In this document: piece by piece, positions 1,538 through 17,790 of the stretch
Layout: each line of letters begins with the position of its first letter
How positions within the stretch are numbered: the first letter of the stretch is position 1
Origin: a virus
Length of the DNA stretch: 40,320 nucleotides
UHGV virus genome: UHGV-1432856
Reading direction: 5' to 3' (one strand)
The notes under the pieces: generated by a model
Database searches by the model: none
What the model was told of the DNA's origin: nothing
The model's input: only the letters and a program-made list of their open reading frames with translations
Program-made: the position numbers and the translations under genes

Positions 1538-2209
1538 TCAACGACCAATCACCACAACCTGACCACCATCTCCTTCATCTGCCGTGCTGATCTCCTGCGA
1601 AATCACCCGTGACCCCACGCGCATTTCACCGTACAGAACCGGCAGAACATTGCCCTGGGCAACCATGTTATCCAGTGAGGAGAAATAGGTGTTCTGCTTA
1701 CCGTTATCCGTTGTCTGTGTGCGGGGAGTTCTGGCTTTCGGTGCCAGCATCTGAGCCACACCGCCGAGCACCATACTGGCACCGAGAGAAAACAGAATGC
1801 CGGTCATACCACCGGCCCCAATGGCTGTCCCCCATGCTGCAAGGGTGGCTCCGGCGGTAAAGAATGATCCGGCAATGGCGGCTGCCCCCAGGACAATCTG
1901 GAATACGCCACCTGACTTGGCCCCGGCGACTCTGGGAACGATATGAATCACAGCGCCGTCAGGCAGATCCTCATGTAACTGCGCCGTTAATCCGGACGTG
2001 CTGACATCCTGCCCGGCAATACGTACCTGATACCAGCCGTCGCTCAGTTTCTGACGAAACGCAGGGAGCTGTGTGGCCAGCGCCCGGATGGCTTCGGCCC
2101 CCGTTTTCACACGAAGGTCGATGCGGCGGCCAAATCGTTGTAAATCCCCGTAAAGGCAGATGCGCGCCATGCCCGGTGACGCCAGAGGGAGTGTGTGCGT
2201 CGCTGCCAT
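1538..2209 (-). CDS. I: tail assembly protein I
   Basis: 223 aa, MAATHTLPLASPGMARICLYGDLQRFGRR... matches lambda gpI; glycine-rich hydrophobic C-terminal half; about 60 nt gap to J as in lambda. Confidence 0.9.
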   Translation of the reverse strand: MAATHTLPLASPGMARICLYGDLQRFGRRIDLRVKTGAEAIRALATQLPAFRQKLSDGWYQVRIAGQDVSTSGLTAQLHEDLPDGAVIHIVPRVAGAKSGGVFQIVLGAAAIAGSFFTAGATLAAWGTAIGAGGMTGILFSLGASMVLGGVAQMLAPKARTPRTQTTDNGKQNTYFSSLDNMVAQGNVLPVLYGEMRVGSRVISQEISTADEGDGGQVVVIGR

Positions 2210-2850
2210 TTGTCGGTGTACCTCTCTCGTTTGCTCAGTTGTTCAGGAATATGGTGCAGCAGCTCGCCGTCGCCGCAGTAAATTGCGGCGTGATTCGGCA
2301 CCGATGAACCAAAACAGCACAGCAGCACATCGCCCGGCTGTGCCGCTGACAACGGCACCTGATACAGCCCCGTCGCCTCCAGATTATCCAGATAGAGATT
2401 CTGGCCGTTACGCCACCAGTCATCCTCACGATGAAAGTCCGGCATCCCAATCCCCGCCAGATGATAAGCATCCCGGAACAGTGTGTAACAGTCCGTCACA
2501 CCGTGCCCAAAGCGCCGCCCGGTGAGATGCGGCACACAGCGGAACTTATGAATCGTCCCCCGGCAGACCAGCCACCACGGCAAATCACTCTGCACCTGCA
2601 GCCGCCGGTCGGCCTCACTCAGCCAGGGCAGACCACCGGGGTGGCTGTGGACCAGCGCCACAATCTCACCCTGCATCTCTGCCCGCAGCCAGTCCTCCGG
2701 CGACATCCGGAAATACGCCTCCGGCTCACCGGAGATATTCACGCAGGGAAAATATCTTTCCCCTTCCGGCGTTCTCACCACGAAGCCGCACGACTCCGCT
2801 GGCGCACATCGCCGGGCGTGCGCCAGAATCGCTGATTCTGTCTCTGTCAT
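2107..2850 (-). CDS. K: tail assembly protein K (MPN/JAB plus NlpC/P60 peptidase-like)
   Basis: HSHPGG (JAB-like) and DCYTLF (NlpC/P60 Cys) motifs; 103-nt overlap with I as in lambda. Canonical lambda annotation starts at the internal Met (about 2706, 199 aa); the longer ORF from 2850 is reported here. Confidence 0.8.
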   Translation of the reverse strand: MTETESAILAHARRCAPAESCGFVVRTPEGERYFPCVNISGEPEAYFRMSPEDWLRAEMQGEIVALVHSHPGGLPWLSEADRRLQVQSDLPWWLVCRGTIHKFRCVPHLTGRRFGHGVTDCYTLFRDAYHLAGIGMPDFHREDDWWRNGQNLYLDNLEATGLYQVPLSAAQPGDVLLCCFGSSVPNHAAIYCGDGELLHHIPEQLSKRERYTDKWQRRTHSLWRHRAWRASAFTGIYNDLAAASTFV

Positions 2851-2855
2851 GGGAT

Positions 2856-3554
2856 TTACTGCGAAAGTTTGTTAATGGAAAGGAAGCCGCCAAAGTTGCC
2901 GACGTTATTGCGAAACTTACAGCCACTCAGGCATTTGCTGCATTTATCCTTCGTGATATCGGACGTCGGCTGGTCATATTCATCCGCGACAGCCGGACCA
3001 TGATAACCGCACTCATCACCGCGATAGGTCCAGGTGCAGGTGTTGGCCAGCATGATGCGCCCCGGAAAAACAGCACCATCCGTTTCCGTCGGTGTGGAGA
3101 GCACAAAGGAGGCACTGACCGCACTCAGTTCGCTGCACTGCTCGATGCGCCAGCGGCTGATCACCTCCTGCTCCGGATCGGCGTCGCTGTTTCCGTTGAC
3201 GAAGTTCACCGCATCCAGAAAACGGGCGTAAACCTTACGCCTGACCACCGTTCCGCCGACCAGACTCTGCAGGTCTTCCGCCATCCCGGTGACCATGCCG
3301 TGCAGGTTAGAGACCGTCAGTGTCGGACGGGCAGCACTGCCCTTACCGTTCAGTTCAAATCCCGTCCCCTGAATGGGGTATGCCTGATACTGCCGCCCCT
3401 GCCAGGTGACCGGCTCACCTTTTTCGTTCTGCTCATTACAGAAAAAATAACGTTCTCCACCAACCTCTGTCAGATCGATTTCCCAGAGCACCACGCAGGC
3501 AGACTGCTCCGCACGGGTGCATTCATTCAGTGTTTCCTGCCGGATATCCTGCAT
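2856..3554 (-). CDS. L: minor tail protein L
   Basis: 232 aa, MQDIRQETLNECTRAEQSA...KCSKCLSGCKFRNNVGNFGGFLSINKLSQ matches lambda gpL as recalled, including the C-terminal Cys cluster. Confidence 0.9.
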   Translation of the reverse strand: MQDIRQETLNECTRAEQSACVVLWEIDLTEVGGERYFFCNEQNEKGEPVTWQGRQYQAYPIQGTGFELNGKGSAARPTLTVSNLHGMVTGMAEDLQSLVGGTVVRRKVYARFLDAVNFVNGNSDADPEQEVISRWRIEQCSELSAVSASFVLSTPTETDGAVFPGRIMLANTCTWTYRGDECGYHGPAVADEYDQPTSDITKDKCSKCLSGCKFRNNVGNFGGFLSINKLSQ

Positions 3555-3883
3555 CAGTTCACCACCTGTTCAAACTCTGCGCTGAACTCAACACGTAACA
3601 TACTGACCCGCGACGACCATTTTGCGCAGGTCACCTTTATCTGCCTGTAACCATAAGGCGGCGTCCACAGAAAGCCCTTCCAGCCCCCGTGCTCAGCCAG
3701 AAACGACTCCAGCGCTGTTGCCTCCTCGCGGGAGACAGAAAGCGTCACGCTGTACGTTTTCAGGTTGGCATTCAGCCCGGCAGGCGCTCGCTGGGAATAG
3801 CCATCACCAAAGCGCACCTTTCTTACAGAAGGGGCCGAAGCCACATCCATACCGGGTTTCACTTTCCAGCGGAAGGTTTTCAT
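3554..3883 (-). CDS. M: minor tail protein M
   Basis: 109 aa, MKTFRWKVKPGMDVASAPSVRKVRFGDGYSQRAPAGLNANLKTYSVTLS... matches lambda gpM; start overlaps H stop. Confidence 0.9.
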   Translation of the reverse strand: MKTFRWKVKPGMDVASAPSVRKVRFGDGYSQRAPAGLNANLKTYSVTLSVSREEATALESFLAEHGGWKGFLWTPPYGYRQIKVTCAKWSSRVSMLRVEFSAEFEQVVN

Positions 3884-14868: not shown

Positions 14869-14920
14869 GTCACATTTCCATTTTTGCAATATGTGATAAC
14901 CTGTTGCATATGTGGAAAAT

Positions 14921-15109
14921 TTATGCCGCATTTGACGTGGGTTTTAATCCCAGTTTTACGGCAATTTCATGGGCTTTGCCGTAACGAGCTTTGGTCTGTC
15001 CATTGAGAACACGATAGACCTCATTGCGGCTGTAGCCGTGTTCTTCGGCCCAGCGGGTAAACGTGATACCACGCTGACGGAAGAGATTTTTAACTTGTTC
15101 GGAAGTCAT
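14921..15109 (-). CDS. small HTH DNA-binding protein in the Cro/Ner position
   Basis: 62 aa, first gene of the leftward operon, divergent from the XRE repressor; AGGAG RBS; not clearly homologous to Mu Ner, assigned by position and HTH-like pattern. Confidence 0.55.
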   Translation of the reverse strand: MTSEQVKNLFRQRGITFTRWAEEHGYSRNEVYRVLNGQTKARYGKAHEIAVKLGLKPTSNAA

Positions 15110-15159
15110 TGTTGTCTCCTTTGTTGATGCAATGATGTTTGTTTTATATGTGATAGATT

Positions 15160-15179
15160 ATGAGAACTATTGTTCTCAT
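15160..15179. promoter_or_regulatory. putative operator: inverted repeat ATGAGAAC-TATT-GTTCTCAT
   Basis: Perfect 8-bp arms with 4-bp spacer, inside the 86-bp divergent region between the Cro/Ner-like and repressor genes. Confidence 0.45.
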
Positions 15180-15195
15180 TGTCAATGAGGTTTAT

Positions 15196-15621
15196 GTGAA
15201 TTTTGATTCTCTTTGCGCGTCGCGGTTCAAAGCTGAGCGTTCGCGGTTATCACTCAAGCAGGCTGAAGTAGCAGCCCTTTGTGGCGTTTCAAGAGAAATG
15301 TGGGGGAAATATGAACGAGGGGTTGCTGTTCCCGGAGGTGAGTTACTTGCAGCCTTTGCAAGAATTGGGGCCAATGTACAGTTCATTCTTACCGGGGAGT
15401 CATCAGGTATAACTTTATCACGTGATGAAATGGAGTTACTGCAGCACTACCGGCAGGCACCATTACAGGTCAAAGGTTCAGTTTTGTCGGCCTTGACTAC
15501 TGGCTCCTCCAGAGAACGGGCGGAACAGGTTATTCATGGAGATGTTCTGGGGAATGTTATCAAAGGTAACGTAACCATAGGAACAGGTGGAATAATGAAC
15601 AAAAATACCAAGAGAAGATGA
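15196..15621 (+). CDS. XRE-family HTH transcriptional regulator, probable prophage repressor
   Basis: HTH LSLKQAEVAALCGVSREMWGKYERG; start placed at GTG 15196 (GAGG at 5 nt spacing); the track ORF starts at ATG 15160 inside the palindrome; divergent from the early operon. Confidence 0.65.
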   Translation: MNFDSLCASRFKAERSRLSLKQAEVAALCGVSREMWGKYERGVAVPGGELLAAFARIGANVQFILTGESSGITLSRDEMELLQHYRQAPLQVKGSVLSALTTGSSRERAEQVIHGDVLGNVIKGNVTIGTGGIMNKNTKRR

Positions 15622-16604
15622 GTAAAGAGAAGCAAACAGTTAACGGGGATGTGGGTAACGTTGTCAGCGGTGATGTTACCATTCATAACTATTCTGCTGA
15701 CATACTTCCTTCGGCCCAGCAACCAATTTCGTTGCTGCAAAAACGCGATTTACACAGATTGATGGATGAATTGGTTGATCTGGGGGAAAGTAAGCGCGAG
15801 CTATGGATGACGATCCACACGAAACTTAATACCAAAACAGTTAATGAAATGACTGCGGCTGATTATCATGGTGCGGTTGAGATCCTTCAGAGATATGCAC
15901 AACAGATCCAGAATATGAAGGACTGTAATCTTCTGGTCAGCAAAATAATGGCGCTTACTGACCCTGGGTATCGTCTTGACCGTGACAGATACTGTCTGAA
16001 GCATTTCGGTACAACCCATCTTAAAGGCCTAGACAAAGAGCAGTTGCAGGCTGTGTTTGGTTATTTTGATGATCTGCTGAATATTCGTGATGAGAGTAAA
16101 ACTCTATCACCTCCATCGGAAAGCGGTGCAAAATCAGTCGCAACTGTACCAACCAGAAGCCGGAAGCCTCATGTAGTAGTGTTGGGGGGAGTGTTAGTTC
16201 TTGTAGCAATATTTTTCGTGGGAATGATTGTGTTCGCTGGTAAATGGGGAAATGCCAAAGCAGTAGCTTCTACTGAAACCAGCGTTTTTAACATTAAAAC
16301 CAACGATAAAATAATAGAAGATTCCATCCCCGCACTGCGCAGCATGTTTCCAGGGTTAAATAAGTACTCAGATGATTTCCATTCGGTTTCAAGCTACAAG
16401 CAAAAAACGGGCTGGCATACCCTTAAATTTACTGTATCAGCAAAGGCATCCGTCCCCGAAAATTATAGTGTTAAGGGCAAGGTTTGTTACATTAACATAA
16501 GCCCTGATGGTAGTTATGCTCGGGTTTTGACTGCTCCATGTCGTTCACTGCTACTTGATCAGCAAAGCACTCCTGACAGTAAATACCGTTTTATTCTTAA
16601 ATAG
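15618..16604 (+). CDS. single-pass membrane protein of unknown function, translationally coupled to the repressor
   Basis: 328 aa; ATGA overlap with the repressor stop; one TM helix (VVVLGGVLVLVAIFFVGMIVFA) between a roughly 185-aa N-terminal and 120-aa C-terminal domain; N-terminal GDV/GNV repeat; AT-rich. Confidence 0.6.
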   Translation: MSKEKQTVNGDVGNVVSGDVTIHNYSADILPSAQQPISLLQKRDLHRLMDELVDLGESKRELWMTIHTKLNTKTVNEMTAADYHGAVEILQRYAQQIQNMKDCNLLVSKIMALTDPGYRLDRDRYCLKHFGTTHLKGLDKEQLQAVFGYFDDLLNIRDESKTLSPPSESGAKSVATVPTRSRKPHVVVLGGVLVLVAIFFVGMIVFAGKWGNAKAVASTETSVFNIKTNDKIIEDSIPALRSMFPGLNKYSDDFHSVSSYKQKTGWHTLKFTVSAKASVPENYSVKGKVCYINISPDGSYARVLTAPCRSLLLDQQSTPDSKYRFILK

Positions 16605-16694
16605 AAAATAACAGCTGAATTACCATGGGATCAGAAAAAAGACAAAGGCGGCATCATGCTGCGTTCTGAAATTTTAATGTAAAAGGTGATGAAC

Positions 16695-17276
16695 ATGGCA
16701 GGGATTCAGGTTATCGCAGGAAGTTTTCCTAAAGGGTGGGCAAGCATGGGGTTCGGTACCATCGTGTTTGCCAAAAAACCAAAACAAGGCTTTCCTGAAA
16801 ATATTGTATTAAATCTGAAAGAAGAGCTTTTATCGATTGAACTTGCGGATAGTGAAGAGGAAAGCCGTATAGGTAAGGCGGCAGGCGCAGGTTTGCTTGG
16901 TGGATTAATCTTTGGTGGTGCAGGGTTGGTCATTGGAGGTTTGCTTGGTGCGGCGGACAAGACGAAAAAAACTATCACTTTTAAGGCAATGTTTACGGGA
17001 AATAGGTTACTTCTGGCTAAAACAGATTCAAAAACTTTTGTAAAACTTCAGTCAATTGCTGCTGATAATGCCCATAACGCATCTGTAATCAACATGAAGC
17101 AAACTAACAGGGGCGATGTTTCTTCTCGTAAACAACTAACAGAAAATCCACAGCAGCAAGACTTACCTGCGCCCGCTACAACAGTAAAAATGACTGCCAA
17201 AGATAAGTTAGAATCGGCTCTTGGGCTGGGAATCATCGTTATAGCTGTTTGGGCAATAATACACTTCTTTTTTTAG
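16695..17276 (+). CDS. glycine-zipper membrane protein of unknown function
   Basis: GKAAGAGLLGGLIFGGAGLVIGGLLGAA glycine zipper plus C-terminal hydrophobic helix LGLGIIVIAVWAIIHFFF; start chosen at ATG 16695 (AGGTG upstream); AT-rich. Confidence 0.55.
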   Translation: MAGIQVIAGSFPKGWASMGFGTIVFAKKPKQGFPENIVLNLKEELLSIELADSEEESRIGKAAGAGLLGGLIFGGAGLVIGGLLGAADKTKKTITFKAMFTGNRLLLAKTDSKTFVKLQSIAADNAHNASVINMKQTNRGDVSSRKQLTENPQQQDLPAPATTVKMTAKDKLESALGLGIIVIAVWAIIHFFF

Positions 17277-17278
17277 TG

Positions 17279-17302
17279 CAGCCCTTCAGGGCTGTTTCTG
17301 TT
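17279..17302 (+). terminator. Rho-independent terminator ending the repressor-linked cassette
   Basis: CAGCCC-TTCA-GGGCTG hairpin followed by TTTCTGTT, 3 nt after the stop at 17276. Confidence 0.5.
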
Positions 17303-17313
17303 CAGGAGGTATC

Positions 17314-17790
17314 TTAAGGATTATCCGGGGCGTTTTCCTGTTTGCCGTACTTCGGAGACGAACAACATTCTGTTGGCTGACCGGTGAGTTTACGTAACTC
17401 CTTCATGAGCAGCTCCTGATCGTAAACTGTCATCAGTGCCGCAATGGTGGCATGCAGTGCATCGGGCAGTATCCAGGGTTGCCGGCCCGTGGGGCATATA
17501 ACATCCAGCAGCTCATTCGTCCGACAGATACGCTCCTCGCCGTATGACAACAGGCCCTGTCCCGTGTATTCCTCCAGCCTGATCACTGTGCCACCCCGTG
17601 GCTTCTGCCAGGTCGTCAGATCTTCGCCATTCATACGGCGCTCATTCTCCACGTCAGCAGCATCGACAATGACGCTGTTTCCGAGTTCCTGTTTCACCAT
17701 CTCTTCTATCCGCGCCAGTACGTAACTTTTACCGCTGCCCACAGGACCGGACACAGTGACAGTGATGACCGGATTCAGTGTGTGCGTCAT
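17314..17790 (-). CDS. small P-loop protein, NMP/shikimate-kinase-like
   Basis: 158 aa; Walker A GPVGSGKS at residues 15-22 followed closely by VIVDAADVE, resembling small P-loop kinases; strong GAGGAG RBS; convergent with the cassette. Confidence 0.55.
   Translation of the reverse strand: MTHTLNPVITVTVSGPVGSGKSYVLARIEEMVKQELGNSVIVDAADVENERRMNGEDLTTWQKPRGGTVIRLEEYTGQGLLSYGEERICRTNELLDVICPTGRQPWILPDALHATIAALMTVYDQELLMKELRKLTGQPTECCSSPKYGKQENAPDNP

Follow-up and report, generated by a model that had tools for sequence, protein, structure and literature searches.

The prophage repressor studied here and the membrane protein encoded directly downstream of it carry matching motifs, one in the C-terminal tail of the repressor and the other at the N-terminus of its partner. 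Both genes lie in virus genome UHGV-1432856, a stretch of 40,320 nucleotides (hereafter the window) that represents a Mu-like (transposable) Escherichia coli prophage. In ~70 unique Mu-like and P2-like loci, an XRE repressor lies upstream of a partner with an Flk_N domain and its tail matches the partner N-terminus, and the motif variant changes from lineage to lineage while remaining identical within each pair. On the basis of this comparison, we propose with moderate confidence that the tail and the partner N-terminus bind like-with-like and thereby couple the repressor to a membrane sensor. Induction of Mu-like and other prophages without a LexA-like repressor cleavage domain is poorly understood, and a co-transcribed membrane protein matched to the repressor tail suggests a specific link, open to experiment, by which the envelope could act on the genetic switch. 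Existing annotation describes the two genes only as 'helix-turn-helix domain-containing protein' and 'hypothetical' or 'membrane protein'.

A shared motif on both sides of the gene boundary

As reported in the first-pass annotation of the window, the repressor tail contains the peptide QVIHGDVLGNVIKGNVTIG (positions 15526-15591) and the coupled protein contains QTVNGDVGNVVSGDVTIHNY (15633-15692). Both peptides contain three G-[DN]-V units, end in VTI and fit together within 56 codons. The description of the coupled protein as a membrane protein is also borne out, by one hydrophobic segment at residues ~181-213 that follows RSRKPH. Alignment of the repressor tail (QVIHGDVLGNVIKGNVTI) with the partner N-terminus (QTVNGDV-GNVVSGDVTI) yields a Smith-Waterman score of 54 (BLOSUM62), which is ~8 standard deviations above the scores of tails against shuffled N-termini (18.5±4.4, maximum 45). 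The two copies differ by a one-residue indel, GDVLGNV in the repressor and GDV-GNV in the partner. A six-frame search of the window found the pattern G[DN][VI]-x0-3-G[DN][VI] only at these two sites, with 0.06 occurrences expected from shuffles. The score relative to the shuffles and the six-frame pattern count rule out chance similarity.

The codons used for the shared residues indicate how the match is maintained. Identical residues are encoded by identical codons at 4 of 11 positions in the window, compared with 4.2 expected from codon usage, and at 216 of 602 positions over all loci, compared with 241.5 expected. Synonymous sites are thus fully randomised, which indicates that the sameness is held by selection at the protein level and that there has been no recent duplication or conversion. 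Gene conversion is ruled out, given that codon identity is no higher than codon usage alone would produce. In AlphaFold2 models of the monomers, both motifs are disordered, with predicted local distance difference test (pLDDT) values below 50, as would be anticipated if they fold on binding.

Conservation and co-variation across phages

We fetched the neighbourhoods of diverse members of the partner family, from viral contigs and genomes; the loci are denoted here by L numbers. A profile search of 1.8 billion representative proteins returned 112 partner relatives. The ~200-aa tail-anchored Flk_N relatives all start with a G/N-rich peptide, either FHGxVGQVAxGDI, GxxNRVAGRDYxE (type B) or GNVNFGTQ (type C). 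In almost every locus, the last 20-30 residues of the repressor match the first 20-30 residues of the partner, in the context of a Mu-like early region, and cognate scores across the ~70 loci range from 43 to 79. The variants FNG..GQF..IIN, NRVAGRDY and HGGQF..INNY each appear in both members of their pairs. The search for a conserved motif pair among homologues, which the first-pass annotation had suggested as a check, was therefore positive, with the pair present in more than 70 distinct loci and its motifs changing in concert.

The extent of this concerted change is best seen in the individual pairs. Many viral contigs combine the repressor tail SINVSGQGNRVAGRDYNENKK with the partner N-terminus TVNSTGEQNRISGRDFNENNI. 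In L020 the tail is VLNISGNASRIAGRDFIDKK and the partner N-terminus ELNVGGDNNRIAGRDFHEHHY, with aligned cores LNISGNASRIAGRDF and LNVGGDNNRIAGRDF, respectively, and in L110, from Pectobacterium, they are SQIFNGDVSGQFAGNQIINNG and RQEFNGTAQGQFSSRDIINIH (cores QIFNGDVSGQFAGNQIIN and QEFNGTAQGQFSSRDIIN). The corresponding sequences are KFKDVGQYIEGSVNQAGLTLNV and DFHGGVGQVAEGDINNFGGINI in L106 (cores VGQYIEGSVNQAG and VGQVAEGDINNFG) and HQQFNGPVGSVTSGDIVN and DQQFHGRIDQVAAGDIRN in L107 (cores QQFNGPVGSVTSGDIVN and QQFHGRIDQVAAGDIRN). The match also survives insertion of a gene between repressor and partner, as in L030, where the insertion is a moron, and in the P2-like phage locus L109, where an 88-aa gene separates the tail MVVHGDVGQTVKGNVTIEGG from the partner N-terminus NIIHGDVGIVAEGDVIQNN.

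The match is likewise retained where the partner belongs to a different family. In two Pasteurellaceae loci, from which use of the motif on non-Flk_N families was judged, the partners are small non-Flk_N proteins with two transmembrane (TM) helices. The first of these loci (L111) pairs the tail GGQSFAGDVHGGQFSTGTINNYGEKK with QQFLSAIHGGQFGQVINNYYA (cores HGGQFSTGTINNY and HGGQFGQVINNY); the second (L113), in which the partner also has a zinc ribbon, pairs MHISEVKQQNNIQHLE with FHINKIGQFNNINEAHF (cores HISEVKQQNNI and HINKIGQFNNI). Without exception, the downstream partner is membrane-bound with its N-terminus in the cytoplasm; it is usually a tail-anchored Flk_N protein and occasionally an unrelated small TM protein.

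For 20 dereplicated pairs, non-matching pairs included, the cognate scores sum to 880, compared with 522±56 for random re-pairing. The maximum obtained in 100,000 permutations was 780, and none reached 880 (p≤1e-5). Of 5,426 complete E. coli genomes, 97 contain the window-type pair and 514 the NRVAGRDY-type pair, so that the feature is common in this species. The occurrence of two very different variants within one host species argues against a single host factor dictating the sequence. A species-genome scan returned a single locus. The repressor tail had no match in deposited phage genomes (tblastn), and the type-B partner matched one unannotated E. coli phage and, weakly, Ralstonia sequences; on this evidence the pair occurs in no characterised phage.

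Several features of the wider family were recorded alongside these results. Many type-B partners (L024, L027, L032 and others) have a second, degenerate motif copy 10-15 residues further on, e.g., AGRDFHESNVLVDQHIGRDMVNILIP, giving two pseudo-repeats in the first 40 residues of the partner and one on the repressor. The motif of the type C partners, GNVNFGTQVNIG, resembles amyloid motifs of the N-x-G-x-Q type. A conserved ~90-aa protein (MEHRYISEERPGFD...) is encoded directly upstream of the Flk_N partner in two P2-like contexts, L109 (2095-2361), where it separates repressor and partner, and L019 (2732-3004), and no family match was found for it.

Architecture of the repressor and its partner

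The repressor is annotated as a protein of 153 aa (WP_001259268.1) encoded by an open reading frame (ORF) at 15160-15621 on the plus strand. Residues 22-68 match HTH_31/HTH_3 (Pfam E-value 4.7e-7), and the closest solved structures are those of the P22 C2 and 434 repressors. As is typical of XRE/Cro-CI repressors, the gene is divergent from a minus-strand ner-like gene and transposase operon, with a putative operator/promoter between them. Apart from its tail, the protein is an ordinary XRE-type phage repressor. In the AlphaFold2 monomer, two helices at residues 88-114 follow the helix-turn-helix (HTH) domain, and the tail is disordered from residue 119. The motif itself, QVIHGDVLGNVIKGNVTIGTGG, spans residues 123-144 (15526-15591, plus strand) and consists of four short glycine-separated strands. 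It is followed by a basic C-terminal end, IMNKNTKRR (15592-15618, plus strand), so that the full C-terminal end reads ...ERAEQVIHGDVLGNVIKGNVTIGTGGIMNKNTKRR; homologues likewise end in basic residues (KKKR, NENKK, GGRKK). The tail is kept in related enterobacterial prophages even where the DNA-binding domain has diverged. A Pfam search of the window repressor gave no match to Peptidase_S24, the LexA-like self-cleavage domain that marks the SOS-inducible subclass of such repressors. In three homologous repressors (P0200, P0201 and P0210), a Peptidase_S24 domain stands where the tail would be, which fits a role for the C-terminal module as the induction-sensing part of the protein.

The true start of the repressor is probably the GTG at 15196, giving a protein of 141 aa, since many homologues begin with MNFDSL. 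The annotated ATG (15160) falls within an operator-like palindrome and a leftward promoter-like site. The upstream peptide MRTxxLIVNGV is also kept in frame in several loci, which could reflect conservation of operator DNA or real translation.

The partner is a membrane protein of 328 aa (WP_000031883.1, phrog_10002) encoded at 15618-16604 on the plus strand, as supported by its ORF, annotation and homologues; its domains are given here in order, all on the same strand. It starts with MSKEKQTVNGDVGNVVSGDVTIHNY, and the motif occupies residues 6-25 (15633-15692). The segment KQTVNGDVGNVVSGDVTI hardly varies among 22 partner homologues, whose overall identity falls to 44%, and the motif is the best-conserved part of the N-terminal 30 residues. 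In the AlphaFold2 monomer, residues 1-29 are disordered. A cytoplasmic helical Flk_N domain follows at residues ~31-160 (15708-16097), with pLDDT values of 80-96, a match to NCBIfam Flk PRK10715 over residues 19-147 (E-value 2.9e-12) and a precomputed assignment to PF27202. A single TM segment lies at residues ~181-213 (16158-16256), identified by a hydropathy scan with the N-terminus inside and modelled by AlphaFold2 as a helix at residues 190-205. Because basic residues (RSRKPH) precede this segment, the partner N-terminus and its motif are expected to be cytoplasmic, in the same compartment as the repressor. The protein ends with a periplasmic α/β domain at residues ~221-328 (16278-16601; AlphaFold2 pLDDT 83-95). 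Pfam, PADLOC and PDB sequence searches of the partner returned nothing besides Flk_N, and there were no noteworthy PADLOC matches to known defence families.

The periplasmic domain is 31% identical (E-value 5e-20) to a lipoprotein whose gene lies directly downstream of the L106 partner (3138-3665), and a further relative is found at L002 (5120-5662). Many relatives are stand-alone lipoproteins (e.g., P0029, P0035 and P0040), making this a fusion/split pair. In Serratia loci the domain occurs both fused to the partner and as a second, free copy.

Organization of the locus

The region from 14900 to 17300 has 100% identity to many E. coli chromosomes, and the window holds the immunity region of the prophage. 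In the annotation of NZ_CP024862, one strand encodes a ner-like DNA-binding protein, an IclR-type HTH protein, a DUF3102 protein, an rve-type transposase, an ExeA/MuB-like protein and Gam. The other strand encodes the HTH protein (the repressor), two hypothetical proteins (15618-16604 and 16686-17276) and then holin, SLT, head and tail genes. The Ner/Cro-like small DNA-binding protein (14921-15109, minus strand), assigned from the ORF list, domain search and annotation, is the first gene of the divergent early (transposase) operon. Between it and the repressor lies the operator-like palindrome (15153-15186), with the core ATGAGAAC-TATT-GTTCTCAT. This palindrome is overlapped by the leftward promoter-like site TTGACA-17-CATAAT (15185 to 15157), which has 11 of 12 matches.

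The partner ORF overlaps the repressor stop codon by ATGA, which couples translation of the two genes. The third gene of the operon (16686-17276, plus strand; phrog_12025) encodes a protein of 196 aa (193 aa in RefSeq) with two hydrophobic segments, according to its ORF, annotation and hydropathy; the protein has a glycine-zipper-like segment, GAGLLGGLIFGGAGLVIGGLLG, and a C-terminal hydrophobic segment. A terminator-like hairpin (17278-17295, plus strand) marks the end of the three-gene operon. On the opposite strand, a small P-loop protein (17314-17790; phrog_3787) bears the RefSeq label 'ABC transporter ATPase'.

Proposed mechanism and alternative explanations

The first-pass annotation had suggested that the motif allows the membrane protein to dock onto the repressor or, alternatively, that it is a scar of local duplication. 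The docking proposal receives strong support of a comparative kind, from the concerted change across ~70 loci, whereas the scar does not hold. Selection appears to favour sameness over complementarity, and this speaks for in-register like-with-like β pairing more than for strand pairing of a generic kind. In-register parallel β stacking requires such sameness, which the interface of an ordinary heterodimer does not. We infer direct binding, a cross-β geometry, a signal that runs from the membrane protein to the repressor, and induction as the outcome. The two copies would bind as stacked in-register β-strands, the principle of amyloid signalling motifs, and the membrane protein could then use the repressor tail to capture, cluster or polymerise the repressor. 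Most likely, the repressor would be removed from its operators; possibly, by analogy with the MuA tag, its basic C-terminal end would become exposed to proteolysis. The result would be an SOS-independent route of induction set off by a membrane or envelope cue. A tail that acts as an induction-sensing module and receives its signal from the envelope fits the exchange of Peptidase_S24 for the tail, the invariable membrane location of the partner and the fused periplasmic domain.

The amyloid or prion-like version of this mechanism is a special case of like-with-like binding and is plausible but unproven. In this version, clustering of the partner motif would form an amyloid nucleus from which the repressor is polymerised, giving a self-templating cross-β lysogeny switch with all-or-none, SOS-independent induction. 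We regard this switch as possible, if on the doubtful side. Cross-β templating would extend amyloid signalling from the control of cell death to gene regulation, and would provide a compact, sequence-programmable device for protein-protein coupling, since several mutually distinct motif variants occur naturally. In the literature we found nothing on amyloid- or motif-based control of a prophage repressor or on a repressor regulated through such a shared motif.

Several observations weigh against like-with-like binding. In the type C loci (L101-L105, ~2043-3250), the repressor ends in a helical domain (...KVERILKLVVNR) and there is no match. The type C partners have an extra N-terminal helix (DDRLAKLAEKLHG) before the GNVNFGTQ motif, and no second copy of GNVNFGTQ was found near these pairs (5.5 kb). 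In type C, then, the gene pairing is kept and the mode of contact, if any, differs. The gene downstream of the repressor in L112 encodes a DUF4236 protein without a match, and in L019 there is no repressor within 3 kb. The NRVAGRDY class is large and its motif contains many charged residues; the motifs in it are so alike that the best score often goes to a non-cognate partner, which limits fine specificity in this class. The indel in the window pair breaks perfect register, and with 11-22 residues the aligned cores fall somewhat short of the length usual for motifs of the bacterial amyloid signalling sequences (BASS; ~25). Motif type has co-switched independently only a modest number of times, and the direction of signalling and its outcome are purely inferred.

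Other explanations of the match have to be weighed against the same data. In phage Mu, control of the repressor operates through a C-terminal ClpX determinant. A single protease, chaperone or phage protein (e.g., ClpXP, Lon or FtsH) could in principle bind the two peptides independently or recognise both as degrons; the membrane protein would then compete for it or serve as a decoy and so tune repressor stability, and the motifs would never touch. A common reader would likewise select similar sequences, and the basic end of the repressor (NTKRR, KKKR, NENKK) resembles the C-terminal ClpX tag of MuA, RRKKAI (PMC8138137), which is a lead only. However, this end is absent from the partner, no candidate phage-encoded reader is conserved beside the pair, and a conserved host factor would not explain lineage-by-lineage co-variation or the differing variants within one host. 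Recognition of both peptides by a host factor probably does not account for everything, and we consider recognition by a third factor in general to be unlikely as well. It is also quite unlikely that each motif serves only the oligomerisation of its own protein, i.e., repressor cooperativity on one side and clustering of the membrane protein on the other, with no hetero-association. The type C partners, which keep an N-terminal G/N-rich motif though their repressors have none, and the partners with two pseudo-repeats are in line with such self-association, but independent use would not make the copies track lineage-specific substitutions, nor would it keep the match across unrelated partner families.

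With the roles of the two proteins reversed, the pair could instead serve in exclusion or abortive infection, much as cI-rexAB or Bab/Agp do. In that case the shared motif would activate the membrane protein as a toxic effector, in response either to loss or alteration of the repressor or to an incoming phage factor. Expression of the operon in the lysogen along with the repressor fits this arrangement, as does the role of known amyloid signalling pairs of E. coli prophages in abortive infection. In those pairs, however, the effector has the C-terminal motif and the sensor the N-terminal one, and here it is the membrane protein that has the N-terminal copy; in addition, no known defence family was matched in PADLOC and the Flk_N domain is not a known pore-former. 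We therefore consider reversed roles very unlikely. Lastly, the short distance between the copies (~100 bases) and a composition biased to G, N and V might suggest a neutral duplication scar across the gene boundary or a chance similarity of low-complexity sequence. Codon identity at or below random expectation, a match well above shuffled sequences, the many co-varying loci and the retention of both copies across distant phages already refute this explanation, to which we give practically no weight.

Comparison with known systems

Flk (RflH/Fluke) of Salmonella and E. coli is a tail-anchored regulator of the flagellar secretion switch (PMC13344023). Homology between the partner and Flk (PRK10715; Flk_N) lies in the cytoplasmic helical domain of the former and the N-terminal domain of the latter, and most phage versions (~200 aa) are also anchored by a C-terminal tail. 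Flk proper, however, is without the N-terminal G/N/V motif (P0123, P0124, P0129 and P0131), and in the window protein the TM segment is followed by an extra periplasmic domain of 115 aa. The window partner scores 46.6 bits, compared with a family cut-off of 353, and is thus not a full-length equivalent of Flk.

Other phage and bacterial repressors offer partial parallels. Like the repressor of phage Mu with its C-terminal ClpX determinant, the present protein is a transposable-phage repressor with a C-terminal tail as a putative regulatory handle and a basic end, but its fold is of the XRE type and not Mu Rep/MuA-like. To our knowledge, no partner with a matching motif has been described for Mu. 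Antirepressors such as Qtip of vibriophage VP882 inactivate phage repressors by sequestration, and repressors can be sequestered at the membrane, as Mlc is by PtsG. The outcome proposed here is the same, a repressor drawn off DNA by another protein or by the membrane. In the Qtip and Mlc-PtsG systems, however, the interfaces are complementary, with no shared peptide, and the repressor and its partner do not form a co-transcribed pair with matched motifs.

The fungal HET-s/NWD2 system shares with the present pair like-with-like templating between adjacent gene products, here as a proposal, and the occurrence of motif pseudo-repeats in one partner. It differs in that the pseudo-repeats here are sometimes found as two copies on the N-terminal (partner) side, in that no NLR is involved, and in its kingdom and output.

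The closest parallel appears to be bacterial amyloid signalling, in which a motif at the N-terminus of a sensor acts as template for the same motif at the C-terminus of the protein encoded next to it. The families BASS1-10, which include Bell/NLR pairs, have motifs of ~20-25 residues with β propensity that are rich in G/N/Q/V/I and poor in K/P/L (Dyrka et al., bioRxiv 10.1101/2020.01.06.895854), and amyloid signalling has recently been shown for an E. coli prophage defence pair, Bab/Agp, with BASS11 (bioRxiv 10.1101/2024.11.07.622273). We judged likeness to BASS1-11 by layout, composition and published descriptions. As in those families, the motif is shared by two neighbouring collinear genes, often overlapping, the first encoding it at the C-terminus of its product and the second at the N-terminus. 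The motifs, with glycines between short strands and cores of 11-22 residues, are enriched in N (3.0x), G (2.2x), Q (1.7x), V (1.6x) and I (1.3x) and depleted in L (0.09x), P (0.08x) and K (0.43x). They are also modular, being attached to tail-anchored Flk_N proteins, Flk_N with a periplasmic domain, a 2-TM protein (L111) and a zinc ribbon with 2 TM helices (L113). Like Bab/Agp, the pair occurs in an E. coli prophage.

The differences lie in the domains that carry the motifs, which in BASS pairs are an NLR/STAND or other immune sensor on the N-terminal side and a cell-death effector (Bell, TIR, CHAT and others) on the C-terminal side. The C-terminal motif is on a DNA-binding repressor instead of a membrane-targeting cell-death domain, and the N-terminal motif is on a small membrane-anchored Flk_N protein instead of an NLR/STAND or TPR sensor. 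Neither an NLR/STAND sensor nor a cell-death effector was detected: the repressor matched only HTH_31/HTH_3, the partner only Flk_N, and no match in PADLOC was notable. Judged from sequence, the pair thus appears BASS-like in layout and composition while departing from the domain content of that family, and may represent an amyloid-type motif pair in an unexpected functional setting. If the cross-β switch is true, it would be the first case of amyloid signalling that acts on a transcription factor instead of a cell-death effector.

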